Assembly (NCBI GenBank): GCA_034189755.1
Contig: JAXIHJ010000104.1
Span: 1-40,533 of the forward strand
Length of the DNA stretch: 40,533 nucleotides
Origin: Planctomycetota bacterium
Lineage (GTDB): Bacteria; Planctomycetota; Phycisphaerae; SM23-33
Direction: 5' to 3'
In this document: positions 2,656-30,869 of the stretch, piece after piece
Layout of the letters: every line of letters starts with the position of its first letter
Numbering within the stretch: position 1 is the first letter of the stretch
Position numbers and translations under genes: made by a program
Notes under the pieces: model-generated
What the model was told of the DNA's origin: nothing
Databases searched by the model: none
Seen by the model: only the letters and a program-made list of their open reading frames with translations

Positions 2656-2681
2656 TCGGATTCGTCTAAGCTATCCAAAGG

Positions 2682-2710
2682 AAATTCCAAATTCCAAATT
2701 ACAAGTTCCA
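2682..2710. repeat. Left arm of the inverted repeat flanking the four-helix-bundle cassette
   Basis: aaattccaaattccaaattacaagttcca is the reverse complement (27/29) of 3118-3146. Weaker complementarity extends to about 55 nt. Confidence 0.75.
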
Positions 2711-2731
2711 TGGAAATTCCAATTCCCAAAG

Positions 2732-3130
2732 TTACAAGCCTGATTGCGTTTTATTTACAATTGAGCTGAAGATACTTAGCAATTCGGTAGCTTCTTGTAC
2801 GAGACAATTCCGTTTATTTTCAAGCTTGGCGTCATTTTGCAGGTCCAGCAGGCCAAGCTAATACCGACTCTCCTTGGCTTCTTTGCGACATATCTTCATT
2901 CTATGGCGAAAGTCTTTCTTGCTGAGAGATTCATTCGCTTCAATGTAGTTTGCTCCAACGGAACCGGAAGCCCGGATCACTTGCTTGCCGTCTTCAAAGT
3001 TTGCAATGGTGTTCGGCAGACCCTTTACGAATGCCTGAACGTCCCTGGCGAAGTTGAACGTCCGGTCCTGAAGGTCGTAAGGTTTGGAATTTGTCATTTT
3101 GGTCATTGGAACTTGTTTGGAACTTGTCAT
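2732..3130 (-). pseudogene. Four-helix-bundle protein (23S rRNA intervening-sequence protein family) interrupted by an in-frame TAG at 2858-2860
   Basis: The 90-aa ORF ends '...KICRKEAKESRY*'. The same frame continues 'LGLLDLQNDAKLENKRNCLVQEATELLSIFSSIVNKTQSGL*' to a TAA at 2732-2734. The family consensus is E(S/T)xYW-L-x-LL, so the stop sits at the conserved Trp (TGG->TAG). The true start is probably an internal Met (3106 or 3097). Confidence 0.7.
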
Positions 3131-3146
3131 TTGGAATTTGGAGTTT
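3118..3146. repeat. Right arm of the inverted repeat flanking the four-helix-bundle cassette
   Basis: tggaacttgtcatttggaatttggagttt pairs with 2682-2710. The adjacent sequence contains a tandem 11-mer, ttggaacttgt x2 (3106-3127). Confidence 0.75.
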
Positions 3147-3151
3147 TGTTG

Positions 3152-4159
3152 TTAATCCTTCAATTTCTGAAGTTTCTCCACAAGCACCGGCACTACCTCA
3201 AACAGGTCTCCTACAATACCGAAGTCGGCCACGCGAAATATCTGTGCTTCGGGGTCGATGTTGATTGCGACGATGGTCTCGGCCGTCTGCATGCCAGCCA
3301 GGTGCTGGATGCTGCCGGAGACGCCGATGCCGATGTACAGCTTCGGCGTAACGGTCTTGCCGGAAAGCCCGATCTGATGCGGGTAGCTCAGCCAGCCTCG
3401 GTCGACCACGTCGCGGCTGGCGCCCAGCGCGGCGTCGAGGGCGTCGGCGAGTTTCTGGACCAGCGGAATGTTATCGCCCTTTTTGATGCCCCGTCCGACG
3501 GCGACCACGACGTCGGCGTCCTGCAGACCGTGTTTATCTTCAGCGGACCTGAAGCCCACTCGTTTAACCCGGCTGGCCAGGAGTTCCGTCGGCGCCTGGA
3601 TGCGTTCGACTTGTCCGGACCGCCCGGCAATTTTCGGCGCAGGCGGCGTAGAGCGCGGACGGACCGTAGCCATCTGCGGGCGGCAGGTCGGCGTCTTGAT
3701 GGTCGCCAGGATGTTGCCGCCGATAGCGGGGCGGGTCTGAAGCAGATTGTGCGTCTGCGGTTCGATGTCGAGCACGGTGCAGTCGGCGGTCAGGCCGGCA
3801 CCGAGCCTGACGGCTACGTAAGGCATCAGTGTCCGCCCGGTCGTGCTTGCACCGGCGATGATGATTTCCGGCTTGCGCTCGGCGGCGAGCTTTTCCAGGC
3901 AAGCGGCATACGGTTCAACGAGGAAGTGTTCCAGTTGTGGCGCTTCGGTCGCCAGCACGCAGTCGGCGCCGCGGTCGATCAGCTCCTGCAAGCCTGTGGG
4001 GTCGATCTTATGGCCGAAGATAACGGCCGTCAGGTTCGTGCCGCACTTGTCGGCCAGTTCGCGCCCGCGCGTCAACAGCTCGTAGCTGATGCGCAACACG
4101 CGCCCGTCTAACTGCTCGGCCAGGACCCAAACGCCGCTGTGTTGTAACATTTTTTTCAT
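3152..4159 (-). CDS. etfA: Electron transfer flavoprotein alpha subunit
   Basis: 335 aa. The C-terminal FAD-binding motif 'PKLYIGIGVSGSIQHLAGM...IVAIN.D' is classic EtfA. There is no N-terminal ferredoxin domain. Confidence 0.9.
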   Translation of the reverse strand: MKKMLQHSGVWVLAEQLDGRVLRISYELLTRGRELADKCGTNLTAVIFGHKIDPTGLQELIDRGADCVLATEAPQLEHFLVEPYAACLEKLAAERKPEIIIAGASTTGRTLMPYVAVRLGAGLTADCTVLDIEPQTHNLLQTRPAIGGNILATIKTPTCRPQMATVRPRSTPPAPKIAGRSGQVERIQAPTELLASRVKRVGFRSAEDKHGLQDADVVVAVGRGIKKGDNIPLVQKLADALDAALGASRDVVDRGWLSYPHQIGLSGKTVTPKLYIGIGVSGSIQHLAGMQTAETIVAINIDPEAQIFRVADFGIVGDLFEVVPVLVEKLQKLKD

Positions 4160-4206
4160 GGGTTCAGGCCGGAGAAGCTCCCCGTCGCATCGCCCGGCCC
4201 GTGGGG

Positions 4207-4386
4207 CTACTTGCCTTTACGTGTGGGCCATTTTTGGGTGAATAACCCAATCAATGCCCCGCCTGCCGTGGCATATCGCAGGTCGTAGCGGTCCAGCTCA
4301 AAGACGTTTTTGGCCAGACAGAAGGCGATAAGCGCCGTTCCGATCGCCAGTCCGATCCGCCTGATGATGTCGAGTTGTATATCCAT
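4207..4386 (-). CDS. Possible 59-aa small membrane protein in the etfB-etfA gap (below the ORF-track cutoff)
   Basis: Manual translation: MDIQLDIIRRIGLAIGTALIAFCLAKNVFELDRYDLRYATAGGALIGLFTQKWPTRKGK*. The ATG lies 13 nt after the etfB stop and is preceded by aaagga. It fills an unusually long (239 nt) etfB-etfA spacer. Confidence 0.3.
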   Translation of the reverse strand: MDIQLDIIRRIGLAIGTALIAFCLAKNVFELDRYDLRYATAGGALIGLFTQKWPTRKGK

Positions 4387-4398
4387 GTTTGGGTTCCT

Positions 4399-5205
4399 TT
4401 ACTGATGCTGAAGCAGTTCGCGTTTTTGCAGGAACACCGCGAGCTTGTCAACGGCCTCGGCGGCGGTTTGTTCGTCGCAGGCGGTGAGCTTCTGGCACTC
4501 GCGGGCAACGGTGGGGCGAAAGATTTTGACCACGCGCGTCGGCGAGCCGGCCAGCCCCAGCTTGTCGGTCTCGACGTCCAGATCGTCCGGTCCCAACGTG
4601 GGCAGATCGGCCTTTCTGGCCCGCTGCTTGCCGCGCAGTGTCGGCAGGCGAGGATCGGCGATTTCCTTGACGACCGTCAGCACAGCCGGCAGCAAGACCT
4701 CCAGCAACTCGTAACCGTTTTCGACCAGGCGATGAACGCGGCAGGTCTTGCTGTCGGCGTGTTCGACCTTGCCTACGTACGTGACGACCGGCAGTTGCAG
4801 AAAGGCGGCTATGCCGGGTCCGACCTGCCCCGTGTCGCCGTCGGTGGCCCGCTCGCCGCAGACAATCAGGTCGAACTCGCCCAGCTTCCGCACAGCCGCC
4901 GCCAGCACGTAGCCGGTCGCCCATGTATCTGAGCCTGCAAAGGCCTTACTGCTTATCAGGACGCCGCAGTCGCAGCCCATGGCGATGGCCTCACGCAGTG
5001 CCTTGGCGGCCTTCGGCGGCCCCATGGAAATGGTTACTACCTCGCCGCCATGCGCCTCACGCAGACGGATGGCCGTCTCTATGGCGTAGAGGTCCAGCGG
5101 GTTGACGATTGCTTCAACGCCCTCCCGGATCATCGTGCCGGTTTCCTCGTCCATCCGGACGGCGCTAGTTTCCGGCACCTGCTTGATAGGAACGATGATT
5201 CGCAT
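4399..5205 (-). CDS. etfB: Electron transfer flavoprotein beta subunit (bifurcating-type signature)
   Basis: 268 aa. 'MRIIVPIKQVP...' and 'GERATDGDTGQVGP' resemble the DGDTAQVGP motif of group-2 (second-FAD, bifurcating) EtfB rather than the AMP-binding type. Confidence 0.9.
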   Translation of the reverse strand: MRIIVPIKQVPETSAVRMDEETGTMIREGVEAIVNPLDLYAIETAIRLREAHGGEVVTISMGPPKAAKALREAIAMGCDCGVLISSKAFAGSDTWATGYVLAAAVRKLGEFDLIVCGERATDGDTGQVGPGIAAFLQLPVVTYVGKVEHADSKTCRVHRLVENGYELLEVLLPAVLTVVKEIADPRLPTLRGKQRARKADLPTLGPDDLDVETDKLGLAGSPTRVVKIFRPTVARECQKLTACDEQTAAEAVDKLAVFLQKRELLQHQ

Positions 5206-8197: not shown

Positions 8198-9225
8198 GTA
8201 AGCGCTTCCTGGAACGTAGTCCACCGGCGCGTCCGGAGCAGGCGGTCGAACCGCTTCAACGCCCGGTGGCGATTATAAGTGCCAATCCACTTCATCAATC
8301 GGCCTTGCTCGGCGAGCATCGGATGTTTCGCTCCGAGGTCCCACAGATTGTACCGGGCATCGTCGAATTCCCAGGGATGAATGTAGATAACAGGCGGGCA
8401 GCCGTAACGCCGCTCGTACCGCCGCAGGAAATAGCGGTTCAGCCAGAGTGGAAACAGCCGCAGGTAGAATCCGCCGCCGATGAGTATGCGGAACTTGCCC
8501 AGCTTGTAGACAGGCAGCGGAAACTCGACCAGGCCGTTCTTCAGGCGGTGCGGCCCGAACGGCGCATCGGCGACGCCGCCGTAGAAAAAGTTCTTCAGCG
8601 GCGCTATGCTCGAATCGTAGACGAAACCCTCATCGGCCAGGACGTCGAACGCCCAGCCGGTCTCGCCGGACATCGAGAACGAAGGCGCTCGGTAGCCCAG
8701 CGGCCGAACGCCCGTAGCCGACATGATGCGGTTGCGGCTGCGGACAACGTCGCGGCGAAACTCCTCCGGCGTCATCTTGTGGACGCGTTTGTGCGACCAG
8801 CCGTGGCAGGCGATTTCGTGGCCTGCCTCCACAATTCGCCCCAGCAGCGGCTCGACGTTATCTATGATGCTCGCCAGGACAAAAAAGGTTGCTCGCACAC
8901 CGTGGGTCTCCAGCAGGTCCAGCAGATGCGGCAGCGTCTCGTGCGCCCGCTTTGGAATGTTCTGTTCGGCGACAAGCTCCTCGGCGTAGGGCACGTAGTT
9001 GTAGTACTCCTCCAGGTCGATGGAAAGGATGGCCGGCGAAGGCGGCAGGTCGAGCTTCTCAGCCACCATGTTACGATAAGCCGAAACTGTCTTAGGTTGC
9101 GTCACGGCCGATTCGTCCTGCTTGCAGTGTTCTGCCCCCGCGCAGCAGACGATACCGAAATCTGCGGACAAATGCGAGGGTCCCTTTGGCGTCGGGGGCA
9201 GAAAGTACTTGCCACCATCCACCAC
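8194..9225 (-). CDS. Polysaccharide deacetylase family protein (NodB domain plus DUF3473-like C-terminus, resembling the PEP-CTERM-locus subfamily)
   Basis: 'LSIDLEEYY', 'ATFFVLASI', 'GHEIACHGWSH', 'GYRAPSFS' and 'GGGFYLRLFP'. The real start may be the internal Met at 9069, because 9225 leaves only 36 nt to the divergent gene. Confidence 0.8.
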   Translation of the reverse strand: MVDGGKYFLPPTPKGPSHLSADFGIVCCAGAEHCKQDESAVTQPKTVSAYRNMVAEKLDLPPSPAILSIDLEEYYNYVPYAEELVAEQNIPKRAHETLPHLLDLLETHGVRATFFVLASIIDNVEPLLGRIVEAGHEIACHGWSHKRVHKMTPEEFRRDVVRSRNRIMSATGVRPLGYRAPSFSMSGETGWAFDVLADEGFVYDSSIAPLKNFFYGGVADAPFGPHRLKNGLVEFPLPVYKLGKFRILIGGGFYLRLFPLWLNRYFLRRYERRYGCPPVIYIHPWEFDDARYNLWDLGAKHPMLAEQGRLMKWIGTYNRHRALKRFDRLLRTRRWTTFQEALT

Positions 9226-9261
9226 TTGAGTCGATACTAATACCGTTTCACCGACTTAATT

Positions 9262-10179
9262 ATGGATCGGGCGGAGAATTTTGGCGTGGCAAGAATACCC
9301 CGGAAGTCATGGTTGATATGCCTGGTGGTTGTGGTGTCATTAGCGACGTGTCTCGCCGATGACGAGACTTCCATGCACGGTTCGCCCCCTCGCATCGAGG
9401 CCATTACCAGGCCCAGTGAGGACGTAACGCTTTCATTTGTCAGGCCGGGTCAAATTGCCAAGGTGTTTGTCAAGGAGGGCGATCCCGTCAAAGTCGGCCA
9501 GGTGCTTCTCCAGCAGGATGACGCCGTGGAGCGGGCCGAACTGGAGCAGCTTAAGCTTCAGGCGGAGAATCTCACCCGCGTTCAGGCGTCCGAGGCCCAA
9601 CTCAAACAGAAGAAGGTGGACCTCAAGAAACTGGAGTGGGCCGAGAAGCGGGGCGCCGCAACGGAGCTGGAAGTCGAGCACGCCCGCTTGGACGTGTTGA
9701 TTTCCGAGCTGACGCTGGAATTGACGCGATTTCAGCAGGATCAGGACCGGCGCAAATACATTCAGGCGAAACTCACGATTGACCGCATGTCCCTGAACAG
9801 CCCGATTGCAGGTGTGGTGGAGCAGATTGCCATCGAGCCGGGCGAAGCGGTGGATGCATGGGTGCAGGTAATTCGTGTTGTGAAGATTGATCCGTTATGG
9901 ATAGATGTTCCCGTTCCGCGGACCTTGGCCATGAAGCTGCGGCGTGGCGGTGCAGCGCGGGTCGAGTTAGGCCCGGCCGGCGCCGTGGTTGTGGGCAAGA
10001 TCATTCACATTGCCGCAGTGGCCGATGCGGCCAGTAATACACTGACCGTTCGTGTGGAGATGCCGAATCCCACACGCAGGCCGGGAGGAGAGCACGTTAA
10101 GATATACTTTCCGCGGCACGTAGCCGGCGGGAAAAGTCACGCGATTGCATCACCATCGGCCTCTGAAAAGAGCAAATAG
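9262..10179 (+). CDS. HlyD-family membrane fusion protein (periplasmic adaptor), N-terminally anchored
   Basis: N-terminal hydrophobic segment 'WLICLVVVVSLATC', a lipoyl-like 'GQIAKVFVKEGDPVKVGQVLLQQD', a coiled-coil hairpin and 'SPIAGVVEQIAIEPGE'. Confidence 0.75.
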   Translation: MDRAENFGVARIPRKSWLICLVVVVSLATCLADDETSMHGSPPRIEAITRPSEDVTLSFVRPGQIAKVFVKEGDPVKVGQVLLQQDDAVERAELEQLKLQAENLTRVQASEAQLKQKKVDLKKLEWAEKRGAATELEVEHARLDVLISELTLELTRFQQDQDRRKYIQAKLTIDRMSLNSPIAGVVEQIAIEPGEAVDAWVQVIRVVKIDPLWIDVPVPRTLAMKLRRGGAARVELGPAGAVVVGKIIHIAAVADAASNTLTVRVEMPNPTRRPGGEHVKIYFPRHVAGGKSHAIASPSASEKSK

Positions 10180-10203
10180 GCCCCAAAAGGACAAGGAGTC
10201 ATT

Positions 10204-10575
10204 ATGGCTGAGAAGAAGAAGCCTTCGACCGACGAAGGAACCAATGTGGAAGATCAGGCACGCGAGCAGACCGGGCAGCAGCAGGTCCGTCTCCGTATCG
10301 ATGAGCGGAACATGAGCAGCTGTTATGCCAATGCCTTTCGCACCAACGGCACGGCCGAGGAGGTCATGCTGGACTTTGGCGTTAATCTGGTCAATCCGGC
10401 ATCGCAGCAGCAGGATAAGCCGGAAATTATTTTCCAGGTCAATCAGCGCGTCATCTTGAACTATTACTCGGCCAAGCGGATGGCGATTACACTCAGCCAG
10501 TTGATTCGCCGTCATGAAGAAGCGTTCGGCGAGCTGGAGATGGACGTTAACAAACGCCGCAAGAGCGGCAAGTAA
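10204..10575 (+). CDS. DUF3467-like small protein
   Basis: aaggag SD. 'YANAFRTNGTAEEVMLDFG...QRVILNYYSAKRMAITLSQLIRRHEEAFGEL' matches the remembered DUF3467 pattern (YsN..i.hs..EF.lDF...R.il.p.hAKrl...L...i..yE..fGei). Confidence 0.6.
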   Translation: MAEKKKPSTDEGTNVEDQAREQTGQQQVRLRIDERNMSSCYANAFRTNGTAEEVMLDFGVNLVNPASQQQDKPEIIFQVNQRVILNYYSAKRMAITLSQLIRRHEEAFGELEMDVNKRRKSGK

Positions 10576-10608
10576 GTTCTACGCTACTCGAAACGGAAGC
10601 AGGCATCC

Positions 10609-12537
10609 ATGTCGACGAAGCCAACGCAGGTTTCTCGGCAGAGGCAGGGCGGCGAATCGCCCACAACAGGTGAGATTGTTGACCGCCTCAGCCGGTTTGA
10701 CGGCCCGCCGGAGCAGTTTCTGGCCACGCTGCTGGCGGTGCAGTGTTATATCTCCGCCGCAGAGGGCGGAACTATTTTGCGGGTCAGCCCCGAGGGGCAG
10801 GTGGAAGTGCTGGCTGTTTACCCCGCCTTGCCCGAGGCGGCGACTGCGCCGGTGTGGCTGGCGCAATCGGTCGAATCGGCCGGGCAGGTTATCCAGGCGG
10901 GCCAGACGAACATCAAGCCGCTCCACAGCGAAGAATCACTCTACGGCGAGCCGGCTCATCATCATCTCGTGATGGTGCCGTTGCGTGGCGGCAGCGGCAT
11001 CCGCGGCCTGGCTGTCTTTATGATTGAAACGCGAGATCAGACCGTTCTTGCCGCCAGCCGGGAACGACTGGAACTTTCGACCAGCCTGCTAAGCCTCTAT
11101 GAGATGCGCCTGACGCTGCAACGCAGGAAGATAGACCTCGAACGGCTGCGAGTGGCGTTGGAAACCCTGTCGGCGGTCAACGAGCAGGATCGCTTCACCG
11201 GTGCGGGCATGGCCCTGTGCAACGAGCTGGCCAGCCGGTTCCAGTGCGACCGGCTAAGCCTCGGCATGTTGAAGGGGCGATACGTCCAGCTAAAGGCGCT
11301 CAGTCATACCGAGAAGTTCAGCCGCAAAATGAAGCTCGTCCAGGACATCGAGGCCGCAATGGAAGAATGTCTCGACCAGGACCTTGAAATCCTTCATCCC
11401 TCGGCTGACGAGGCCCCGTACGTCGCTCGGGCCACCAAAACTCTTGCCACACGCCACGGCCCGGCGACGGTTGTTTCGTTGCCGCTTCGCAAGGGTGGTG
11501 AGCCGATAGGCGTGCTGACGGCGGAGCGCCCGGTGGACCGCCCGTTCAGCCTCGATGAGATCGAGACGCTGCGACTGACCGCGGACCTGAGCACGGCCTG
11601 GCTGGCGAACCTTTTTGAACACGACCGGTGGTTCGGCGCCAGGTTGGCCGGTGCAGCCGGCAAGGGCCTTTCCGTCCTGCTGGGTTCCAAGCACACGTGG
11701 GCCAAGGTCGCAGCCGTTGCCGTCATCGTAGTAGTGTCGTTCCTGGTGTTTGCCAGGGGCGATTACAAGGCCGAGGCGACGTTTGTTGTCCAGGCGGTCC
11801 AGCGGCGGGTCGTTACGGCGCCTTTCGACGGCTATCTCGCCGATGTTTCGGTTGAACCCGGCGAGGTGGTCAAGGCAGGCCAGGAACTGGCCAGGCTGAG
11901 CACGAAGGACCTGCAATTGGAGCTGGACAGCCTAAAGGCCGAACGCGAAGTGTATCTCAAACAGGCTGATACCGCCATGGCCGCCGCCATACTTGATGAG
12001 CAAAAGAGGGCCGAGGGGCAGATCGCCAGGGCACAGGCGGCAAAAGTAGCCGCGCAGATCGAACTGCTGGAGTACCGCAAGCAGCAGGCAACGCTAATGG
12101 CGGCTATCGACGGACGAATTATCGGCGGAGACCTGTCCCGCCAGATCGACACCAAGATTGCCACCGGCGACATGCTGTTCGAAGTGGCGCCGATCGAAAA
12201 CCTTCGTGCGGAGCTGTCCATGCCGGAGGACCAGATCGCCGACGTGGTGGCCGCCATGGACGAGGCCCGAAAGCACGGGCGGGATATCCGCGGCGAACTG
12301 GCCACAGCCGGTGAGCCAGGCCAGCGAATCGAGTTCATCGTCGAGCGGATCAATCCCGTAGCCGAGGTGGTGGACCAGCAGAATGTCTTCAAGGTGCGTG
12401 TCCGCCTGGCGGGGCGGACCGGGCGTATGCTGCCGGGCATGGAAGGCAAGGCGAAGATTCACATCGGCAGGGCCAGTTACGCCTGGCTGTGGACTCGCCG
12501 ACTGGTCAACTGGTTGCGGATGAAGCTCTGGCTCTGA
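10609..12537 (+). CDS. Two GAF-like domains, one TM helix and a HlyD-type membrane fusion domain
   Basis: Two cytoplasmic GAF-like regions ('LVMVPLRGGSGIRGLAVFM', 'VSLPLRKGGEPIGVLTAER'), TM 'VAAVAVIVVVSFLVFA', then 'VVTAPFDGYLADVSVEPGEVVKAGQELARL' plus a long coiled coil. Confidence 0.7.
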   Translation: MSTKPTQVSRQRQGGESPTTGEIVDRLSRFDGPPEQFLATLLAVQCYISAAEGGTILRVSPEGQVEVLAVYPALPEAATAPVWLAQSVESAGQVIQAGQTNIKPLHSEESLYGEPAHHHLVMVPLRGGSGIRGLAVFMIETRDQTVLAASRERLELSTSLLSLYEMRLTLQRRKIDLERLRVALETLSAVNEQDRFTGAGMALCNELASRFQCDRLSLGMLKGRYVQLKALSHTEKFSRKMKLVQDIEAAMEECLDQDLEILHPSADEAPYVARATKTLATRHGPATVVSLPLRKGGEPIGVLTAERPVDRPFSLDEIETLRLTADLSTAWLANLFEHDRWFGARLAGAAGKGLSVLLGSKHTWAKVAAVAVIVVVSFLVFARGDYKAEATFVVQAVQRRVVTAPFDGYLADVSVEPGEVVKAGQELARLSTKDLQLELDSLKAEREVYLKQADTAMAAAILDEQKRAEGQIARAQAAKVAAQIELLEYRKQQATLMAAIDGRIIGGDLSRQIDTKIATGDMLFEVAPIENLRAELSMPEDQIADVVAAMDEARKHGRDIRGELATAGEPGQRIEFIVERINPVAEVVDQQNVFKVRVRLAGRTGRMLPGMEGKAKIHIGRASYAWLWTRRLVNWLRMKLWL

Positions 12538-12552
12538 TATAGAAGGTGTTTC

Positions 12553-14724
12553 ATGCCAGTGGACCGGCCCACATTCAGCGAATCATGGTACCGCGTTGTG
12601 GACTTGCGGCCGCGGCTGCGGTCGACGGTTCAGGTGCACCGCCAGCACTTTCGCGGGCACATGTGGCACGTTCTGCAAGACCCTTCGTCAAATCAATTCT
12701 TCCGCCTGAACGATGCGGCTTACTACTTCGTAGCCATGCTGGACGGCCGGAGGACCGTCGGCGAGGTTTGGCGAATCTGCAATGAGCAGCTCGGCGACAG
12801 CGCGCCGACGCAGGGCGAGGCTATCCAGTTGCTGGGCCAGCTCTATAGCTCAAACCTGCTCCAGGCGGAGCTGCCCCCCGACGCCGAAGGCCTGTTTCAC
12901 CGGTATCGCAAGCGTGTAACCCGGGAGGTGCAGGGTTATCTGATGAATCTGTTGTTCATACGGGTTCCGCTGATTGATCCGGACAACTTTCTGAACCGCT
13001 GGGTGGGGGTATTCGGCAAGTTGTTTACGAAAGTTAGCCTGCTGTTGTGGGTGGTGCTGATGGGGGTGGGTTTGTATTTTGTAATCGGCCGGGCCGGCGA
13101 GCTGTTTGATGGGGCAGCGGGCATTCTCGACCGGGAGAATCTGCCGCTTTTGTACCTGAGCTTCGTGATTATCAAGATTTTCCATGAGTTCGGGCACGCA
13201 TTTGCCTGTAAGGCGTTTGGCCGGGCCAGCGGCACCGGGGGCGAGGTCCACGTAATGGGCGTAATGTTCCTGGTCTTCACGCCCCTGCCGTATGTGGACG
13301 CCTCCAGCGCGTGGGCGTTTCGCCGGAAGTGGCACCGCGCCGTGGTGGGCGCAGCCGGCATGTTCGTGGAGTTGGCCGTCGCAGCCGTCGCGGCAATTAT
13401 CTGGGCAAACACCGCCCCCGGAACGCTGCGGGCCGTCTGCTACAACGTGATGTTCATCGCCTCGGTCTCATCGCTGATCTTCAACGGCAACCCTCTGCTT
13501 CGCTTTGACGGCTACTACATACTTTCGGACGTGCTGGAGATTCCGAATCTCTCTCAGCGGTCCAAGCAGTACATCTATTACCTCGTCAAGCGCTACGTCT
13601 ACGGAGTGCGCAGGTCTCATAATCCGGCCAACACCGGCGGCGAGAAGAGATGGTTCGTTTTTTACGGCATCGCCTCGACACTGTATCGCGTGTTCGTCTG
13701 TATTCGGATATTGCTGTTTATTGCGGACAAGTTGTTCATTGTGGGGGCTGTACTGGCTGTAGCAGCCGTCGTGGCCTGGGTGTTCGTGCCGCTGGGCAAG
13801 TTCCTGCATTATCTGTTCACCAGCGGGGAGTTGATGCGGGTTCGGGTACGAGCGGTGGGCTCGACACTCGGGGTGCTGTTGGCAATTGTAATTGGTGTCG
13901 GGCTGATTCCCGCGCCCGACCGCGGGCGGATCGAAGGCGTCGTCGAGCCGGTCCGTCTGGCAATCATGCATGCCCAGAGCGACGGCTTTATTCAGGACAA
14001 CTTCCTGCCATCCGGCAGCAGTGTCAGGCCCGACCGCGACATTCTCGTCCGCGCCGAGAACCCCCAGCTCCAGGCCATGCTGAAACAGGTGCGAGCTGAA
14101 CGGGACATCTACCTGACCCAGCGCCGGCTGGCGATGGTGCACCAGCAGGCCGCCGTAGGAGCCTTGACCGAAAAGATCAAGGCCCTGGACAATCGCATCT
14201 CGCGGACACGGCGCATGGTGGACGACCTGTCGCTTAGGCCTCGTATCGAGGGGCAGTGGATTGCCCCGGAAATCGACCGGACCGTGGGATTATACATCCG
14301 TCGCGGTGAAAGGATCGGCATCGTGGCCAGTCCGGACGACGTTTTTGTTCGTGCGATTGCCGACCAGGAAGTCTCTATAAACGAGATTGATTTCAGCCGC
14401 GTGGAGATACGGGTCAAGGGTCGGCCTGACCTCCAATGCACCGGAAGAATCCTGAACATTCTGCCGGTAGGCCAGCAGCGCCTGCCGTCGGCTGCACTGG
14501 GCTACGCCGCGGGCGGATCGATCCAGACCGACCCTCAGGACAGGCAGGGCACCAGGGCCGCTGAGCGAGTCTTCGAGGTCCGCATCGCTCCGGACGAAGA
14601 CCGCGATATCCGACTGCTGAGCGGCCAGCGGGTCATCGTGCGGTTTGAGACGCCTCGCAAACCGCTGGCGCTTCAGTGGTTGCGATCGCTCCGGCAACTG
14701 ATCCTCAGGAGGTTCCACATCTGA
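12553..14724 (+). CDS. Fusion protein: PqqD-like domain, M50 (site-2 protease) membrane metalloprotease and a HlyD-like periplasmic domain
   Basis: PqqD-like 'FFRLNDAAYYFVAMLDGRRTVGEVW...AIQLLGQLYSSNLL'. HEFGH lies at 13183-13197 in a TM segment. The second S2P motif is 'NGNPLLRFDGYY'. The C-terminal half has a coiled-coil/beta-barrel adaptor-like sequence. Confidence 0.75.
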   Translation: MPVDRPTFSESWYRVVDLRPRLRSTVQVHRQHFRGHMWHVLQDPSSNQFFRLNDAAYYFVAMLDGRRTVGEVWRICNEQLGDSAPTQGEAIQLLGQLYSSNLLQAELPPDAEGLFHRYRKRVTREVQGYLMNLLFIRVPLIDPDNFLNRWVGVFGKLFTKVSLLLWVVLMGVGLYFVIGRAGELFDGAAGILDRENLPLLYLSFVIIKIFHEFGHAFACKAFGRASGTGGEVHVMGVMFLVFTPLPYVDASSAWAFRRKWHRAVVGAAGMFVELAVAAVAAIIWANTAPGTLRAVCYNVMFIASVSSLIFNGNPLLRFDGYYILSDVLEIPNLSQRSKQYIYYLVKRYVYGVRRSHNPANTGGEKRWFVFYGIASTLYRVFVCIRILLFIADKLFIVGAVLAVAAVVAWVFVPLGKFLHYLFTSGELMRVRVRAVGSTLGVLLAIVIGVGLIPAPDRGRIEGVVEPVRLAIMHAQSDGFIQDNFLPSGSSVRPDRDILVRAENPQLQAMLKQVRAERDIYLTQRRLAMVHQQAAVGALTEKIKALDNRISRTRRMVDDLSLRPRIEGQWIAPEIDRTVGLYIRRGERIGIVASPDDVFVRAIADQEVSINEIDFSRVEIRVKGRPDLQCTGRILNILPVGQQRLPSAALGYAAGGSIQTDPQDRQGTRAAERVFEVRIAPDEDRDIRLLSGQRVIVRFETPRKPLALQWLRSLRQLILRRFHI

Positions 14725-14725
14725 C

Positions 14726-16714
14726 GTGACGGACCTGCCGAGCACAACCTGGCGGATGCTGGCCCAGCGGACGGCGGGTACGGAACTACCTAAGGGCCTC
14801 GATGCCGTATGGGACGGCACCGTGGGGTTTGCCGGGCGGCTTCTGCCGAGGCGGAATCGCTTCCTGCGCCGGGCGGAGCAAATCGTCGCCATGGAGGGGC
14901 AGTTCACCAAGTTGTCGGACGCCCGGCTGCGCGAAGTTGCCGCTGATCTGCGGGCCATATTTCGTTGCGGGCGTGAGACCCAGGTGGAGTTGGACCGTGC
15001 CTTTGCGGTCGTTCGGGAAGTAGCCTGGCGTGAACTTGGCGAAAGGCCGTTTCCGGTGCAGATGGCCGGCGCGCTGGCGATCGAGGCCGGCTGCATCACG
15101 GAGATGGCCACCGGCGAGGGCAAAACCCTGACGGCTACCATGCCTGCCGCGGTGGCGGGCTGGCGAGGCCGGGGCTGCCACGTCATTACCGTCAACGATT
15201 ACCTCGCCAAGCGAGATGCGGAATGGATGAGCAAGGTATATGGCTTTTGCGGGCTGACCGTAGCGCACGTTGCTCAGGGCATGCCGCCGCCGCAGCGCCG
15301 GGAGGCCTACCGGGCGGATATTACTTATGGCACCAATAAGGAGGTAACGGCCGACTTCCTCCGCGACAGGCTGGCGCTGGGCCGGTTGCAGGGATTACCG
15401 GCCGCACTGCTGGCGAAGATCACCGGCGGTTCCGGCAGCGGCACCGACCGCATCGTACAGCGCGGGTTGCAATACGCGATTGTTGACGAGGCCGACTCGG
15501 TCCTGGTGGACGAGGCGGTTACGCCGCTGATTATTTCCGGCCAGGCCCCGAACGCCGAGCAGGTCGAGGCCTTTCAGCAGGCCGCCAGGCTGGCCGGCGA
15601 ACTCAAGCCGCAGCGCCATTACCGCGTGAACCATCGCTACCACGAGGTTGACCTGACCTCGGCCGGAAAGGAATACCTGGCTGAGTTGGCCGCGGAGATG
15701 GGCGGAATATGGGCTGGTGCAAGGCGCCGGGAGGAACTTGTCGTTCAGGCCCTGACAGCCAGGCATTTCTACATGTTGGGAAAGCAGTATGTTGTGGACG
15801 ACGGCAAGGTGGTGATTGTCGATGAATTCACCGGCCGGCTGATGCCCGACAGGGAATGGCGCGACGGGCTGCACCAGGCCGTCGCCGCCAAGGAAGAACT
15901 GGAAATCGAGCTGCCGAAGGATACCTACGCCCGCGTGAGCTTTCAGCGGTTCTTCAGAATGTACCGCAAGCTTGCGGGCATGACCGGCACGGCCACCGAA
16001 GGCCAGGGAGAGTTCTGGCAGATTTACCACCGTCCTACGGTGGTGATTCCCACAAATCGCTCCTGCATTCGTAAGCACTATCCGGACAAGGTCTTCGCCA
16101 CCGCCGAGGCCAAGTGGCGAGCGATCGTGGCCGAGATTAGCCGCTTTCACCAGCAGGGCCGGCCGATCCTGATTGGTACGCGCAGCGTCCGTGCCAGCGA
16201 GCATTTAAGCCGGCTGCTTACCGACGAGAAACTCGAACACCAGGTGCTAAACGCAGTTCGCCACGCCGCCGAGGCACAGATAGTCGCCGGTGCCGGCCAG
16301 CGAGGCAGAATAACGGTGGCGACGAACATGGCCGGACGCGGCACGGACATCAAGCTGGGCCGGGGCGTGGCCAAGTTAGGCGGGTTGCACGTAATCGCCA
16401 CGGAGCGGCACGAAGCCGGGCGCATCGACCGCCAGCTTTTCGGCCGGTCCGCACGCCAGGGCGACCCCGGCAGCGCACAGGCCATAGTGAGCCTGGAAGA
16501 TGAACTGGTTCTCCGCCACGCGCCCCATCTGGCGGGGCTGCTCCGCAAGCGGCTTGGGGGGCGAGATGGCGAAATCTCCTCACCGGTCAGCCGGAAGGTG
16601 TTTGATATTGCCCAACGCCGGGCCGAGCGGCTTGCGCTGCGGCAACGAAAGGCCGTCTTGAGGACCGATGACTGGTTGGACGAATACCTCGGATTCGCCG
16701 GCAGTGAGCGGTAA
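14726..16714 (+). CDS. SecA-like DEAD-motor ATPase paralog, C-terminally truncated (662 aa)
   Basis: GTG start 1 nt after the upstream stop. Walker A 'MATGEGKTLTATMPA', Walker B 'IVDEADSVLVDEAVTPLIISG', PPXD 'YVVDDGKVVIVDEFTGR', and NBD2 'LAGMTGTA', 'ATNMAGRGTDIKLG', 'GGLHVIATERHEAGRIDRQLFGRSARQGDPGS'. It ends about 90 aa after this motif. Confidence 0.85.
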   Translation: MTDLPSTTWRMLAQRTAGTELPKGLDAVWDGTVGFAGRLLPRRNRFLRRAEQIVAMEGQFTKLSDARLREVAADLRAIFRCGRETQVELDRAFAVVREVAWRELGERPFPVQMAGALAIEAGCITEMATGEGKTLTATMPAAVAGWRGRGCHVITVNDYLAKRDAEWMSKVYGFCGLTVAHVAQGMPPPQRREAYRADITYGTNKEVTADFLRDRLALGRLQGLPAALLAKITGGSGSGTDRIVQRGLQYAIVDEADSVLVDEAVTPLIISGQAPNAEQVEAFQQAARLAGELKPQRHYRVNHRYHEVDLTSAGKEYLAELAAEMGGIWAGARRREELVVQALTARHFYMLGKQYVVDDGKVVIVDEFTGRLMPDREWRDGLHQAVAAKEELEIELPKDTYARVSFQRFFRMYRKLAGMTGTATEGQGEFWQIYHRPTVVIPTNRSCIRKHYPDKVFATAEAKWRAIVAEISRFHQQGRPILIGTRSVRASEHLSRLLTDEKLEHQVLNAVRHAAEAQIVAGAGQRGRITVATNMAGRGTDIKLGRGVAKLGGLHVIATERHEAGRIDRQLFGRSARQGDPGSAQAIVSLEDELVLRHAPHLAGLLRKRLGGRDGEISSPVSRKVFDIAQRRAERLALRQRKAVLRTDDWLDEYLGFAGSER

Positions 16715-16936
16715 CACCGTAGCCGGCTTGCCCGGAAGTTGGCGAACCGGAAATACGAAAAACGCTTGACTATGGTTTGGTGGCCGGATACGTTGCAAAG
16801 TGGCGATAATACCCTGGTAAGGCCGACGTGCCGACGTGCCGATGAGCCTAAACCAGGCTGGAGTATATGTGATATTGCTTAAGTGAACCTTTGCGGAGTG
16901 GCTCAGAGCTTTGCCGTGAAGGGAAGGAGTGCCTAG

Positions 16937-19900
16937 ATGTCTATTCCTGCCGAGAGTCCCCCCGAGAACCTCTTGCCCCAGTTCGAAAGCCTCGAACAAA
17001 GACTGCTGCTGACAACGCTGATGGGCGGAGAGTTTTTCATCTACCTAAACAGCCAGGGTGAAGCGGTCCGCGTCGATTTGGACGTCGGGGCGACGGAAGA
17101 CTCCGAGGACGCCATCGTGGAGTTGTTCACCTACGACGACAATTGGGGCGGCGTGCACGACCTGGTCGGCATTCCCGGTGACGATACCGCCGGCCTGCGG
17201 ATTAACGACCAGCAGCAATGGGGCGACGGTGTCGAAGACATCGTCGAATACGACGTCGAGAATGGCACGTGGTCGTGGATCAACTACGAAAAGGACGAGT
17301 TCGGCAATGACAGCATTCGCGGCGCCGAGACGGAGATCTTCTCGATCTACATAGCGATGTGCACACCCGATACGGTGCTGACCATATCGACGCTGACCTC
17401 TTCGGACATTCCCGAAAGTGCAGCCGGCTGGCCCGCCTGGTATAACGATATCAATACCTGGGATTCGACGACCCTGCCGCTGCTGGCCGTTATCGCACAT
17501 GATCCGGTGAATGTCTTTGCGCCGGCCGGCTCCGGTGGCGTGATCGTTGGGACGCAGCGTTCGCCCGAGGCCGGTGTCGACGGCGACAAGCTGCGGCACA
17601 TTGCCGTGGCCAACGCCGACCCGGAAACCGGCCTGTCCAACATGGGCTGGTTCCCCGGCGGAAACCTGGCGCCCGGCGTTTCGGTATTCGGCGAACCGTT
17701 CCAGATGATCAACCTGCCGGTCGGCTCCGACGTTCATTCCATCGCATCCGACTCCGCCGGCAATATGTTCGTGGTGGACCTCAGCGCCTTTCAGGGTGTC
17801 ATCGTCAACGACGATCCCGGCGGGGAGGGATTTCTGGGCGAGGACGTCAGCTCGCTTGCGTCCGATTCGGCCGGGACGTTCTATGCGGTGGACAATGCAC
17901 TGACGCCCCTTATCAACAGCCCGACCAATAGTAACATCGGGGCCAACATAACGGGCATCACGGCCGGCGATGCAGGGCTGTTCTACGCCGTTGATGAGGA
18001 GACCCACCATTTGCTTTCATGGTCGGTGGCCGACGGGCTTACCGACATCGGCGAACTGATCGACGCCAACCAGAGCCAGTACCGCTACGAAGGTGTTTGC
18101 GGGCTTGATTACAATTCGAGCAGCAGCCTGATGTATGCGATCGGGTTTGTAGTGGACACCGACCCGGCTGTTGCGCCGGATGCGCCCGATCCGAGCGGCC
18201 CGTTCCTGATTACCATTGATGTAACCAATGCACAGGTTACCAGCAGGATGCTGATAAACGACGGCAACGGCACGTTTACCGCGATGGCTTTCGATCCCGC
18301 CGGAACCTGCTTCGCCGTCAACGGGGCGACCAACGAGCTGGTTACCATAGACCCGGCCGACGGCGCTATTACGGTCGTGGGCACGTTGCTGGACGGTGCG
18401 ACTTCCGTTACGGGTGTCGTTGGCATCGACTTCCTCGGCCAGGACATGTACGCCGTTACCGGCGACCACTTGTATCGAGTGAGCCCCGCAACCGCCGCGT
18501 GCACGGACCGCGGCGCAGTGGCGCTACCTGCCGACATGGGCTCGCTGGCTTATGACCCGACCCGGCCCGGCTCGCTTTACACGGCTGTCGATATCGGCAC
18601 GAACGAGTATCGCTTCTGTCGCATCCCGCTGGGCGCTTCGCTGGTCTGGGCCGACGTTGACGGTGTGTCGACGCTTATTGACGTGCTGGTTGATTCTACG
18701 GAAGACACGTGGGTCTGGCAGAACGTCTACGCGCTGGATTACAACAACGGTGACGGCCTGCTGTACGGGGTCGGCACGGCCGTCGATCTGGACACCCAGG
18801 ACGCCGGCGTTCCACCGGCGGGCCGGCGGCTGATTACAATCGACCCGGTGACCGGCCTGGTTACCGACGTCGGCGCGCTGACAGGTGCGGCCGACGTGCA
18901 AAGCCTCGTCTTCGATGGCGGCGGCACGCTCTACGGCCTGGACGCCACCACCGACGAGCTGTACGACATCAACCCGGCTACGGGCGCCGGTGTGTTGGCG
19001 GCTACAGTGGATGTTTCCAATCTGGAGGGTATCGAGTTTGTCAACATCGGCGCAAACGAGGTCCTGTACGGCGTTACGGCCGACGAGCTGTACGTCTTTG
19101 ACCTCAACCTTGGTGCGGGCACTGCCACCGGAACGCTTCTGGGCGACACCGGCCAGACTACGCTGAGTTCGCTGGCATTCGACGGCAGTGGCAGCCAGGA
19201 CAACATACTGTGGTCCACCGCCAGTGACGGCACGAACTTTTACCTGACGCGCGTAGACCTGTCCAGCGTGCTGGTTGCACTGAACGGCTGGAATCCCGTT
19301 ACGCGGCAGGCGCTGCTGTTCGACGCGGCTGAGCCTGCATACGCCTATGTCGGCATTCACGCACTGGAATTCGGGCCGGGGGACGTGCTCTACGGTGTCG
19401 GCACTATCGTCAACCTCGACCCCGGCAATGTAGCTGACCCGGCCTCGTTTGGCCCGTACCTGATTACCATTGATACGACCACAGGCCTGGTTACCCAGGT
19501 GGTTCCGGGTACGCCGCTTGTAACGGACCTGTCCTCGCTGGCATACGACGCCACCGCCACGTGGTACGGCGTTGTGCCCGACGTTGCGGGCGACCAACTG
19601 GTGACGGTGAACATGGCCACCTCGGCGACGACTCTGGTCGGCGTGCTCACCGCCGCCGCTGCGCTGACTGGCGTAACGGGCCTGGACTTTGAAGACGGTT
19701 CGCTCTATGCGGTAACGGACGATTCACTTTACGAAGTGGATGCGGCCACGGCTGTGTGCACGCTGTCCGGCCTGACGCCGTTTACCGGCCTGAGCAGCCT
19801 GACCGGCGACGAGACGGATACGCAGCAACTGTGGTCCACGGCGCTGTTCGGCGACGAGTATTACCTCGTCAGCCTGGCGACCGACGCCGAAGCGGGGATC

Positions 19901-22900
19901 CAGGACATCGGGCGCGTAATCATGGCCGGCACACTTGCCGGCGCGTTCACCACCGACGGCAACGTTGAAGTAATCGAGATGGGGTTCCTGTTCGGCAACG
20001 TGCTGGTCGGGCACAATCTGGATACACTCATTGCCCGCGTCGGCGGTGGGGCGGTGCCGGTTCCGGCGCCGACAAATTTCGTAACCCCCGACGAAAGCAG
20101 GATATGGGCCGGCGGCGTCATCACCGGCGTTTACAGCCGCTCTGAAACGCTGTATTCGGCAATCGAGGCCGACAACGACCTGACAATTGCGGATCCCGAC
20201 ACGCTGATCATGGAACACGAGGTCCGCGTCGCCGCTGACGCCCACGACGCCGCCTGGCTGGCCGGCGACCTGGTGGACCACTACAACGACTCGATGGAAA
20301 CAGCCCAGTTCCTGAATCACCCGTCGGGCGACTTCACACTGTTCGGTTCTTTTCCGTCGGATCCGTACGATTCCCTTGAGGACTGGTACGCACTGCCACT
20401 GATGGCCGGCCAGACCATCGTCATGGACGGCATGGTTATTAGTTGCGCCGCCTACCTGTACGACTGGGACGGCAACTGGATGGACAGCTTCGGCTTTGAG
20501 ACCATCGAGGACGAGGGCCTCGCCTCGATTGGTCAACAGATCAAGCCAATGACTTTCACCGCCCCGTCAGCGGGTGTCTACTACCTGATGTTGTATGATT
20601 TAGAACCGCGAGGCGGCGCCTATTTACTGAACTTTACCAACGGCCCAGCGGCGGCGCTGGGTGGCGTCAGTGTCGTCGGCGACTATTACGGTATGTTTAC
20701 GGGCACCGGCTCGGCCGCGGACAAGGGAGCCAACATCGCCGCCAAGTGGGGCGGCGACCTAGGCGGCGTCGTGATTACAGGCAGCAGCTACTACACGGTC
20801 GCCTACGCCGCCTACGGCGGAAACCTGGTAGCCTTCCAGGCCGGCGAAATTGGGACGCTCATTGACGGGACCTACACCACCAACACGATTATCTCCGACA
20901 GCAACATCGGGCGGGTAGCCTCAACGTCGGGCTTCCTCGACGCCAACATCCTCGCAGGCAGCAATTTCTACAACCCCAATGCGTACATCCAGAACATCTA
21001 CGCCGCCACCGACTACATTTTCGCAAACGCCATCATGGCCACGGGCAGCATCGGCGTAATCGAGATCGAAAACGATTTGCAGTATGGCGTACTTATCTCA
21101 GTCAACAGCAACGATACGAATTATACCCCGGGGATGGGGTCGCGGCTGGACCTGCTTGACATCGGCGGCGATTATCACTGCTACGGTGGGGCGATGCTTT
21201 CCCATGGTCCCGGCGGCGACATTGGGTTTGTCTACGTCGGCGGGACTATACTCGTCGATTACGGCGATTGGATCGGTGCGGTTACGGAGGAGCTTTATGA
21301 GAATGGCGAGACCTCCATTCTCAACGACGACGGCGGCGGTCGGACGACCGTTTTGCCCGTCGAAACCACTTTGCTGGATGAAAACGGCGCCCCGGTGCTG
21401 GATGAAAACGGCGACGAAGTTACCTACACGCCGACCTATTCCTTTTGCTACATACCCGTCGACGACGTGATGGGCGGCGTGGGCGGCGTGGTCGCCAATT
21501 TCCGGGTCAACGGCTCGGCCGTGTTTAATACCACCGGTGTGGTCCAGGTTTCCTCGCTGGACATTTCCGATTGGAGGCCGGGCGGCGGCGGCGACCCCTA
21601 TACCAGCCTGACCTTCGCAGGCGGCGAGACAAACATCTACTATCTCCACGACCACCACACCCATCCGGACTATGCGGCCCGGACGCTCGACATCCATATA
21701 GATGGGAATCTGGTTTCAGCGAACCTCGGCCAGGGCGGATGGGGCGCATCATCAAGCGCGGTGTCCAGAGATACGACCGTGGCAAACCCGTATCCGGTGG
21801 ATCAGCTCGATATTGAAAAATTGACGGTTACGGGCGATCTCGGCGCCCAGACGGGCACCACGGGCGCCTGGCTGCACGGCTGGGACGATGCAGAGGTCAT
21901 CCCGGATGTGGACGACGGCTCGGATGCGGATACCGTCGCCCAATACTATCAGGAGGCCCAATACGGCTGGTTCCACGGCAAGCACAACGGCGTGCAGATA
22001 TGGGGCAATCTGGAGAATCTGAGGGTCAATGGTTCTCTGGGTGACATGCGCGTCAAGAACAACCCACGTATCGATGCCGCATTGGCGTTTACCGGCCGAA
22101 TCGGCACCGTTCGCGTCAATGCGGACAACTACACAGCCGCCGGAGATTGGGACGGTATCTGTGGGATTCTCTGGGCCAGGAGGCGGATCGACGAGGCTTA
22201 CGTCGGCGACGGCCTGGCCGACGACGGCGGGGCGGATGTGGCGCGGGCGGCCATTATGTCCGGCTACAGTATCGGCAGGGTCGAGGTCAACGGGCCTTAC
22301 TTCGTGGTGGACGGCCAGGCCTACCATGAGCTGAACGGCTCGATCATCGGCTTCAGCAATGACATCGGCACAACCTTTGATGAGGCGGGCAACCCGGTTG
22401 TAACGACCTATCACGGCGTCGGCCAGGTTATAGGCCTCAACGGCGCGCGGATGACGGCCAACGTCGTCGGCATGAACCTGCTAACGTTCCGCTGCTACGG
22501 TGCGCCCTACGCCGCCGCCGCCGGCATCGGCACGGTAAGCTTCTCCGGCGTGGGCGCTGAGATCGAAGGCTCGGAAATTACCGGCGATTACGTTCAGAAG
22601 GTCTACACCAGCATTAACTCCAATGGCATCAGCAACTCGCACATTTCCGGCCATGACCCGGTATCGGGCGAATATGCTGTCGGCGAGGTAATCGGCGGCG
22701 GGCCTGGCATGAACCGCGTTTTCGTCAGCGTTACCGGCAGCGACATCGGTACTGTCAAGGGCCTCGGCGCCAATGCCGACATCCTTAGCAGCGTATTCGT
22801 TTCCACCGCCGGCATGCATTACATCGGGGCCAAGGACCTGTACGAAAACGGCATCCACATGCCCGGCACCGTCGGAACGATGAACGCCACGCACGACATG

Positions 22901-28530: not shown

Positions 28531-28535
28531 CATCC

Positions 28536-28949: not shown

Positions 28950-28950
28950 G

Positions 28951-30591: not shown

Positions 30592-30613
30592 CGCTCAAAG
30601 CAAAAAACATGCA

Positions 30614-30805: not shown

Positions 30806-30810
30806 AGCTT

Positions 30811-30836: not shown

Positions 30837-30869
30837 CACTAACCCATGTTGTCGAGCCGGTGCCTGTTC

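Follow-up and report, generated by a model that had tools for sequence, protein, structure and literature searches.

Secondary SecA_DEAD domain proteins, which lack the wing/scaffold domain of SecA, were described by Kamneva, Poudel & Ward (PLoS One 2015; PMC4452313). Their genes were found in a locus with those for a GAF-HlyD, an M50-HlyD and an HlyD/Biotin_lipoyl membrane fusion protein (MFP), as in META1p2399-2402 of Methylobacterium extorquens AM1, and in these authors' proposal the SecA_DEAD ATPase replaces an ATP-binding cassette (ABC) transporter, the M50 protein possibly serves as the way through the membrane and horizontal transfer has spread the locus. Here we analyze such a locus in a stretch of 40,533 nucleotides (the window) that makes up positions 1 to 40,533 of contig JAXIHJ010000104.1 (assembly GCA_034189755.1) of a Planctomycetota bacterium. 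Its genes g1 to g5 encode an MFP, a DUF3467 protein, a second MFP with a GAF domain, a PqqD-M50-MFP fusion and a C-terminally truncated SecA paralog, and are followed by a giant gene, g6 (Table 1). As in the published locus, the SecA_DEAD protein keeps the preprotein cross-linking domain (PPXD) without wing or scaffold, the GAF-HlyD, M50-HlyD and HlyD/Biotin_lipoyl proteins are encoded alongside it, and the SecA-like protein groups apart from canonical SecA in a rough neighbor-joining tree. The operon is a planctomycete member of that kind of locus. The novelty implied by a preliminary description of this DNA therefore fails, since the same combination was already described in 2015; its statement that the genes map to no characterized system is literally true, no such locus ever having been characterized experimentally, although the locus type itself was on record.

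Two further reports concern giant proteins. In Chlorobium chlorochromatii, the LEPRxLL giants Cag_663 (36,806 aa) and Cag_665 adjoin SapC and TolC genes and are co-expressed with Cag_1676, a "secA" judged to be recently acquired (bioRxiv 10.64898/2026.03.19.712371). Cag_1676 may be a short SecA of the type studied here; a secondary SecA_DEAD gene is listed for a single Chlorobi genome in PMC4452313, whose supplements did not yield the name of the species. Wing-less SecA_DEAD plus PPXD segments also lie inside giant proteins of Omnitrophota, for which self-export was suggested (West-Roberts et al., bioRxiv 10.1101/2023.11.21.568195). PqqD or RiPP recognition element (RRE) domains (RiPP, ribosomally synthesized and post-translationally modified peptide), DUF3467, cargo and LEPR-XLL go unmentioned in PMC4452313, and in no paper did we find the PqqD/RRE domain on the M50 fusion, the recurrence of DUF3467 or the LEPR-XLL motif common to the neighboring giants. 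Nor did we find a paper that links LEPR-XLL proteins to the M50-HlyD/SecA-like system, or a functional study of the published locus, of LEPR-XLL secretion or of the M50/HlyD/SecA/giant combination; the accessible part of a 2021 Chemical Reviews survey of tripartite and type I secretion systems (T1SS) does not discuss the locus.

With a probability of roughly 0.55, we propose that the operon is a T1SS-like exporter of giant proteins that dispenses with an ABC transporter, is guided by an N-terminal leader, is driven by the SecA-like motor and processes the leader with the M50 protease. This reading is put forward because an RRE leader-binding fold is fused to a catalytically intact membrane protease and an MFP module, and because the sole ATPase is a SecA that has the polypeptide clamp without the parts that couple SecA to SecYEG and SecB. 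The presence of three MFP-type proteins, with a TolC gene adjacent in relatives, argues for a duct across the envelope.

Domain content and conservation of the operon

The PqqD domain (PF05402) of g4 was detected at residues 39-103 with 26.1-30.1 bits (cut-off 23.4). Pfam Peptidase_M50 matched weakly (18 bits against a cut-off of 27.2; 34.7 bits for the homolog on an E. coli plasmid). We nevertheless assigned g4 to this family because both M50 zinc-site motifs (HExxH and NxxPxxxxDG) are present within the polytopic core, as HEFGH at residue 211 and NPLLRFDGYY at residues 313-322, and are at least 95% conserved across 62 homologs; judged by its sequence, g4 is a polytopic M50 metalloprotease with intact catalytic motifs. 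The structure predicted by AlphaFold2 (pLDDT 88.7, built on 44 sequences) has three parts. Residues 27-99 form three strands (27-33, 36-43 and 48-52) and three helices (54-61, 69-83 and 87-99) in the RRE/PqqD topology, the middle part is a helical membrane core, and residues 455-723 make up a lipoyl, α-hairpin and β-barrel MFP module with its helical hairpin at residues 504-557. Foldseek matched this C-terminal module to MacA, MexA and AcrA (E about 1e-10). In the model, g4 thus starts with a leader-peptide-binding fold, and leader binding by g4 is predicted. The family is large, with 4192 clusters at 50% identity (E<=1e-30).

The g5 protein matched SecA_DEAD (342.8 bits), the PPXD (SecA_PP_bind, 91.8 bits) and the SecA P-loop model (197.4 bits), and scored under the cut-off of every NCBIfam SecA and SecA2 model. 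It contains nucleotide-binding domain 1 (NBD1), PPXD, NBD2 and the start of the scaffold helix, with intact Walker A (MATGEGKT) and DEAD box (VDEADS) motifs. Its alignment spans residues 19-607 of B. subtilis SecA and then stops; g5 therefore appears to lack roughly the last 230 SecA residues. In SecA, this stretch comprises the wing domain, the two-helix finger and a SecB- and lipid-binding tail at the C-terminus. The truncation is typical of SecA homologs linked to g4, in which the tail beyond the g5-aligned core has a median length of 3 aa (n=57), vs. 248 aa in other SecA homologs (n=60). In the neighbor-joining tree, a quick and rough one, the short SecAs formed two pure clades (50 + 12) that were not mixed with 67 canonical SecAs. 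A metagenome scan seeded with g5 gave 13 loci with close relatives (65-75% identity), of which 10 contained g4 and the other three were short or truncated contigs; none of g1 to g4 occurred in any of 67 control loci with canonical SecA (39-48% identity to g5). The short form of SecA is specifically associated with the M50-HlyD fusion.

RefSeq names the truncated SecA "prepilin peptidase" in Pseudosulfitobacter and Methylosinus and "DEAD/DEAH box helicase" in Pontibrevibacter. The genes concerned (locus L082, 18077-20101; L083, 17204-19120; L084, 17142-19127) share 47% identity with g5 (tblastn), and their names are thus misannotations, which hide the system in databases.

The remaining genes encode two adaptors and a small accessory protein. 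The g1 product has HlyD_D23, HlyD_3 and Biotin_lipoyl_2 domains (Pfam), matched TIGR01730 (RND_mfp, NCBIfam) with 112.9 bits (cut-off 94.9) and has a hydrophobic N-terminus that is either an anchor or a possible lipobox (LATC); tblastn placed g1 homologs near the system in many related loci. The g3 product has a cytoplasmic GAF domain (aa 203-327), a single transmembrane (TM) segment (about aa 368-386) and a periplasmic MFP part with HlyD_3/HlyD_D23 domains (aa 399-611), and its gene is the immediate upstream neighbor of g4 in almost every related locus. Of the GAF-GAF-TM-MFP architecture proposed earlier for g3, one GAF, the TM segment and the MFP part stand; a second GAF domain was dropped, as the Pfam search gave no match in the first 200 residues.

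The g2 protein belongs to DUF3467 (PF11950, 63.9 bits). By tblastn DUF3467 adjoins the system in eleven related loci, and it is annotated at the same position on plasmids of Methylosinus, Pontibrevibacter, Thalassospira and Pseudohalocynthiibacter, so that g2 is probably a recurrent accessory component of the system. A single paper mentioning DUF3467 was found, and it was irrelevant. The idea of g2 as a SecB-like chaperone was considered and is unsupported: the AlphaFold2 model is of low confidence (pLDDT 59.7), a Foldseek search of the PDB with it returned nothing under E = 1, sequence and profile searches of the PDB gave no matches, and hhalign against an approximate sequence of E. coli SecB gave a probability of 0.2.

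The neighborhood of these genes was surveyed in 80 loci from a genome scan seeded with g4, onto which the window proteins were mapped by tblastn. The g3-g4-g5 triad was contiguous in Planctomycetota, Terriglobia, Verrucomicrobiota, Alpha-, Beta- (Burkholderiales), Gamma- and Deltaproteobacteria, Bacteroidota (Edaphocola) and Campylobacterota (Sulfurimonas). The co-occurrence of a SecA paralog with an M50-HlyD fusion, which the preliminary description had singled out for checking, was thus borne out in related genomes. Because synteny of the triad holds across dozens of loci in six or more phyla, often with g1 and g2 alongside, and g1 to g4 are absent from the 67 control loci, the arrangement is not due to chance.

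Clustering of neighboring open reading frames (ORFs) returned a single further family that recurs across lineages, TolC/OEP (Pfam OEP), which is adjacent in 12 loci (14 with two weak matches) and on several annotated plasmids. No ABC transporter or other pump family recurred beside about 100 related loci in the neighbor clusters or plasmid annotations. The absence of an ABC, resistance-nodulation-division (RND) or major facilitator superfamily (MFS) pump noted earlier was upheld by a domain scan of all other sizeable ORFs in the window, none of which encodes an ABC, RND, MFS or OEP/TolC protein. The ORF scans, the neighbor clustering and the plasmid annotation reject a conventional pump, whether concealed in the window or, as had been allowed for, lying just outside it and co-varying with the MFPs. 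The earlier view of the operon as an envelope-spanning export or processing machine is strengthened in its functional part; it omitted the TolC partner, which is absent here and adjacent in at least 15 relatives.

A second subtype, found on IncF plasmids of E. coli and on plasmids of Azospirillum, consists of a giant of the LEPR type (MALEPRFMFDAAG; ALESRQLFDGAAL), TolC, two MFPs and M50-HlyD, and has no SecA-like gene, PqqD match or other ATPase. The E. coli variant (plasmid NZ_CP081687.1, IncFIA/FIB, 44829-64580; locus L086) has a 13.4-kb Ig-like giant whose N-terminus includes ALESRQLFDGAAL; this variant occurs in 24 of the 5426 complete genomes of the species, and the Azospirillum locus (NZ_CP059452.1; L093) has the same layout with a DUF4347 giant. 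Thalassospira has DUF3467 and a g4 homolog (32% identical over residues 6-723), again with no SecA-like gene. The SecA-like motor is therefore not universal; from gene content, the M50-HlyD/MFP/TolC set appears to be the invariant partner of the giants and the motor an addition in one large subtype. In Pseudosulfitobacter, a SapC-family gene (L082, 17263-18084) separates the M50 fusion from the SecA-like gene and may encode another accessory component.

Giant neighbors and the LEPR-XLL motif

The g6 gene starts 222 nt downstream of g5. Its product begins MSIPAESPPENLLPQFESLEQRLLLTT and carries an LEPR-XLL-like motif (Table 1); no Sec-type hydrophobic core (h-region) was found in its N-terminus and no RTX repeats (GGxGxD) in the protein. 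It contains DUF6923/DUF4394 repeats and a C-terminal Peptidase_C39_2-like domain, with a weak match to the cysteine-peptidase model NF045837. The C-terminal papain-fold domain (26837-27634) forms an enzymatic head on a repeat- and β-rich protein.

Giant genes of 2-13 thousand codons directly adjoin the system across related loci, and homologs of g6 itself do so in two of them (L003 and L010). Long ORFs in the related loci were scanned for L-E-x-R-x-L-L near the N-terminus. A strict regular expression matched in 20 of 94 system loci, vs. 2 of the 67 canonical-SecA control loci, which were not taxon-matched to the system loci and in which both matches are dubious (Fisher p = 8e-4). In the genome-locus set, 12 of 17 matches lay within 700 bp of a system gene. 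The NCBIfam model of the motif, NF012209, scored 30-34 bits in the giants of seven loci that span four phyla (L023, L024, L032, L045, Pseudosulfitobacter, Methylosinus and Pontibrevibacter) and 16.1 bits in the Azospirillum giant; the E. coli and Mariniblastus-group variants gave no match.

Motif proteins were found directly 3′ of the SecA-like gene in L003, where the giant carries FENLEERLLLTT, and in L024 (Verrucomicrobiales). In the Mariniblastus group, a giant with YQVLEDRRLLA lies directly upstream of the SecA-like gene. The motif reads LEALEPRLLLSS in L023 (Terriglobia) and MEPRLMMSA beside the system in L022, and further motif proteins stand beside the system in L032 (Betaproteobacteria), L033 (Opitutales), L045 (Neptunomonas), four other loci (L041, L048, L049 and L059) and three metagenome loci (L102, L103 and L107).

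Annotated plasmids confirm this linkage independently, and the label "LEPR-XLL domain-containing protein" is given by NCBI to the giants of Pseudosulfitobacter, Pontibrevibacter and Thalassospira. The gene order in Pseudosulfitobacter is a 38.7-kb gene with this label, HlyD, site-2 protease, SapC, SecA-like and MFP; in Pontibrevibacter, a 31.8-kb LEPR-XLL gene, DUF3467, MFP, PqqD-family protein, SecA-like and MFP; in Methylosinus, a 26.5-kb LamG giant (FDTLEPRVLLNADV), DUF3467, MFP, PqqD-family protein, SecA-like, MFP and TolC; and in Thalassospira, a 12.1-kb LEPR-XLL gene, DUF3467, HlyD, the g4 homolog, MFP and TolC. The giants are otherwise non-homologous, being of LamG, DUF4347, Ig-like, calcium-binding and DUF6923 types that did not cluster together. 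A common N-terminal motif on unrelated proteins is the behavior expected of a targeting tag. The suggestion that the giant beside the operon is its cargo, made earlier from the window alone, gains strength from this recurrence of giants with a common motif.

Five contigs (L010, L013, L026, L034 and L043) end inside a giant ORF beside the system, and the assembly of metagenome-derived genomes seems to stop within the repetitive cargo gene; the observed rate of cargo linkage is therefore an underestimate. In Alisedimentitalea (NZ_CP123586.1, 158778-183224; L081), a 24.4-kb gene annotated as "calcium-binding protein" lies beside the system and has no LEPR motif in the annotated first 100 residues; its start is mis-set or it bears a different tag.

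Table 1. Coordinates of the operon, the giant gene and the marked segments of its product (window positions).
Feature	Description	Coordinates	Strand	Length or score
g1	ORF, membrane fusion (periplasmic adaptor) protein	9262-10179	+	305 aa
g2	ORF, DUF3467 protein	10204-10575	+	123 aa
g3	ORF, GAF-TM-MFP	10609-12537	+	642 aa
g4	ORF, PqqD(RRE)-M50-MFP fusion	12553-14724	+	723 aa
g5	ORF, C-terminally truncated SecA paralog	14726-16714	+	662 aa
g6	ORF, giant protein, candidate cargo	16937-27637	+	3566 aa
LEPR-XLL-like motif of g6	FESLEQRLLLTT, aa 16-27	16982-17017	+	NF012209, 14.8 bits
Peptidase_C39_2-like segment of g6	PF13529	27377-27514	+	27.5 bits (cut-off 24)

The ORF coordinates confirmed the tight packing reported earlier for g1 to g5, all on the plus strand with gaps of 24, 33, 15 and 1 nt. 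A promoter and terminator scan of positions 8900-17300 gave hits at chance level and was uninformative, with no terminator-like site in the gap between g5 and g6. On the 3′ side of g6, genes for a family 2 glycosyltransferase (GT2), a DUF2304 protein and a PMT_2/ArnT-like glycosyltransferase lie on the plus strand (27790-30591); beyond them, genes for a GT2, an NAD-dependent epimerase and a type I phosphodiesterase lie on the minus strand (30870-34545). Taken together, these genes (27790-34545) may form a cluster for glycosylation or the envelope, with the giant or the cell surface as its target. A gene for a membrane H+-translocating pyrophosphatase (849 bits; 38070-40533, plus strand) extends past the 3′ end of the window. 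Near the other end, an FAD-linked oxidase gene adjoins the genes for the α and β subunits of electron-transfer flavoprotein on the minus strand (1222-5205), overlapped by a longer plus-strand ORF (2795-4111) that has no family match and is probably spurious.

Proposed export route and competing explanations

In the route we propose, the steps beyond domain content, conservation and linkage are those that we infer. The cytoplasmic PqqD/RRE domain of g4 would bind the β-strand-prone leader (F-E-x-L-E-x-R-x-L-L-S/T) of the nascent or unfolded giant, possibly assisted by the DUF3467 protein. The truncated SecA, which keeps the ATPase core and PPXD and is devoid of the wing, two-helix finger and C-terminal tail that couple SecA to SecYEG and SecB, would then dock on the g4 platform and push the chain through N-terminus first. 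Oligomers of the M50 domains, held together by their MFP parts and joined by the GAF-MFP and the small MFP, would provide the inner-membrane passage and a periplasmic tube leading to a TolC-type channel, presumably encoded elsewhere in this genome and adjacent in relatives. Finally, the M50 active site would remove or trim the leader, and the GAF domain may gate the system on a ligand. Unlike the C-terminal signals of T1SS, a tag at the N-terminus would let export begin while translation of a 10-100 kb gene is still under way. Whether the whole M50-HlyD-centered system, with the truncated SecA as motor in the main subtype, is a dedicated LEPR-XLL secretion pathway and a distinct type (guided by an N-terminal leader, RRE-recognized, M50-processed, ABC-less, TolC-coupled and N-terminus first) is in our view an evenly balanced question.

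Several points weigh against this export route. The N-terminus of g6 falls under the 17-bit cut-off of NF012209, a 24-aa motif, and the enrichment of the motif was measured against controls not matched by taxon. Many related loci have no giant within 10 kb, their contigs often being short or broken in giants. The pore-forming subunit is itself a prediction, which is a weak point. Most of the operon is barely expressed in exponential-phase M. extorquens AM1 (PMC4452313), and the literature yielded no experiment on any family member. Finally, the loci of E. coli, Azospirillum and Thalassospira have no dedicated ATPase gene, and a Vibrio LEPR-XLL giant has C-terminal RTX and serralysin domains (PMC10868602), which suggests that classical T1SS serves some LEPR-XLL proteins.

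The last two observations also favor a two-step route, in which the giant crosses the inner membrane by Sec or an unlinked ABC-type T1SS, while M50-HlyD/MFP/TolC carries out the step from periplasm to surface, or holds the LEPR-XLL anchor until M50 cleavage, as in LapA/LapG, with the SecA-like protein as an optional chaperone or unfoldase. The Chlorobium giants are without known transport signals, and their authors favor C-terminus-first, T1SS-like export (bioRxiv 10.64898/2026.03.19.712371). However, g6 lacks both a hydrophobic signal of the Sec type and RTX repeats, the approximately 100 loci have no recurrent ABC gene in their vicinity, and the SecA-like protein keeps its PPXD and ATPase motifs and occurs only with g4. 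We regard this route as unlikely, though it is the competitor that survives best.

The two other explanations are weaker. In the first, the operon serves ligand-gated efflux of small molecules or polymers, or site-2-protease signaling: GAF would act as the sensor, M50 would carry out regulated intramembrane proteolysis and the MFPs would work with a pump encoded elsewhere. A GAF domain does point to sensing, the usual partners of MFPs are drug, metal or lipid pumps, and glycosyltransferase genes lie downstream in the window. Against this stand a SecA motor whose preprotein-binding PPXD is intact, the lack of any pump that co-varies with the MFPs, the absence of glycosyltransferases from the neighbor families of other loci and a linkage to LEPR-XLL giants that extends over several phyla; this explanation is very improbable. 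Slightly less credible still is a RiPP-type pathway in which the RRE binds a small precursor, M50 cuts its leader, MFP/TolC exports the product and the giant is coincidental: a PqqD/RRE domain with a membrane HExxH protease is a RiPP hallmark and the best NCBIfam matches of g4 are the daptide intramembrane metalloprotease (167 bits) and then YydH/LiaK, but these scores are far under the cut-offs (300 bits for daptide; 32 vs. 225 bits for LiaK), the neighbor clusters hold no conserved small precursor, radical-SAM, cyclodehydratase or other tailoring family and the recurrent neighbor is the LEPR-XLL giant, so that we rejected it as the principal explanation.

How proteins of 3,000 to >30,000 residues without Sec, Tat or C-terminal T1SS signals cross two membranes is a standing question, and the LEPR-XLL class includes some of the largest bacterial proteins, among them the 36,806-aa Cag_663 and the products of plasmid genes of 24-39 kb. 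If the export route proposed here is true, it would explain the purpose of the LEPR-XLL tag, give a function to a widespread Gram-negative SecA paralog, to DUF3467 and to a family of >4,000 protein clusters, and show that protein secretion has co-opted both a leader-binding RRE domain and a site-2 protease. The system departs from every characterized secretion type, and the LEPR-XLL link makes the giant-export hypothesis directly testable. Culturable carriers include Methylosinus, M. extorquens AM1, Thalassospira, roseobacters and E. coli with the IncF plasmid variant, the last a tractable model.

Comparison with known secretion systems

The locus of Kamneva et al. is matched by the present one in its four core genes, its phyla, the occasional OEP gene and the inference that the ATPase substitutes for an ABC transporter. 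To this the window adds a case from Planctomycetota with a giant gene immediately downstream.

The T1SS, as in HlyB-HlyD-TolC or the LapBCE exporters of giant RTX adhesins, resembles the system in combining α-hairpin MFPs with a TolC-family channel, whose gene is absent from the window and adjacent in relatives, and, on the proposed route, in exporting very large, acidic and repeat-rich surface proteins in a single step. The MFP α-hairpin is found here, whereas an ABC transporter and a C-terminal signal or RTX repeats in the cargo are not. Instead, there are three MFP-type proteins, a SecA-derived ATPase and an M50 protease, and the proposed signal (LEPR-XLL) is N-terminal rather than C-terminal and RTX-type.

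Accessory Sec systems (SecA2/SecY2/Asp of Gram-positive bacteria and mycobacterial SecA2) also use a second SecA for particular, often very large, surface proteins. Membership in them was rejected, as g5 scored below the cut-offs of the SecA2 models and the ORF scans found no SecY-like or Asp genes in the window. The system differs from them in the truncation of g5 after NBD2, the lack of SecY2 and Asp, its diderm hosts and the coupling to MFP and TolC.

Peptidase-containing ABC transporters and RiPP leader handling, in which PqqD/RRE domains act with HExxH membrane proteases of the daptide or YydH type, share with g4 the presumed recognition of an N-terminal leader by a domain of the exporter and its removal by a fused protease, with an RRE fold and an M50-like HExxH motif. 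Here, by contrast, the presumed substrate is no peptide and has 3,500 to >10,000 residues, the protease is fused to an MFP in place of an ABC transporter and there are no tailoring enzymes. Lastly, the giants of Omnitrophota and Actinobacteria (10.1101/2023.11.21.568195) likewise tie a wing- and scaffold-less SecA with PPXD to giant proteins; there, the SecA lies within the giant, beside genes resembling those of type II secretion systems, whereas here it is a separate 662-aa protein encoded in an MFP/M50 operon.

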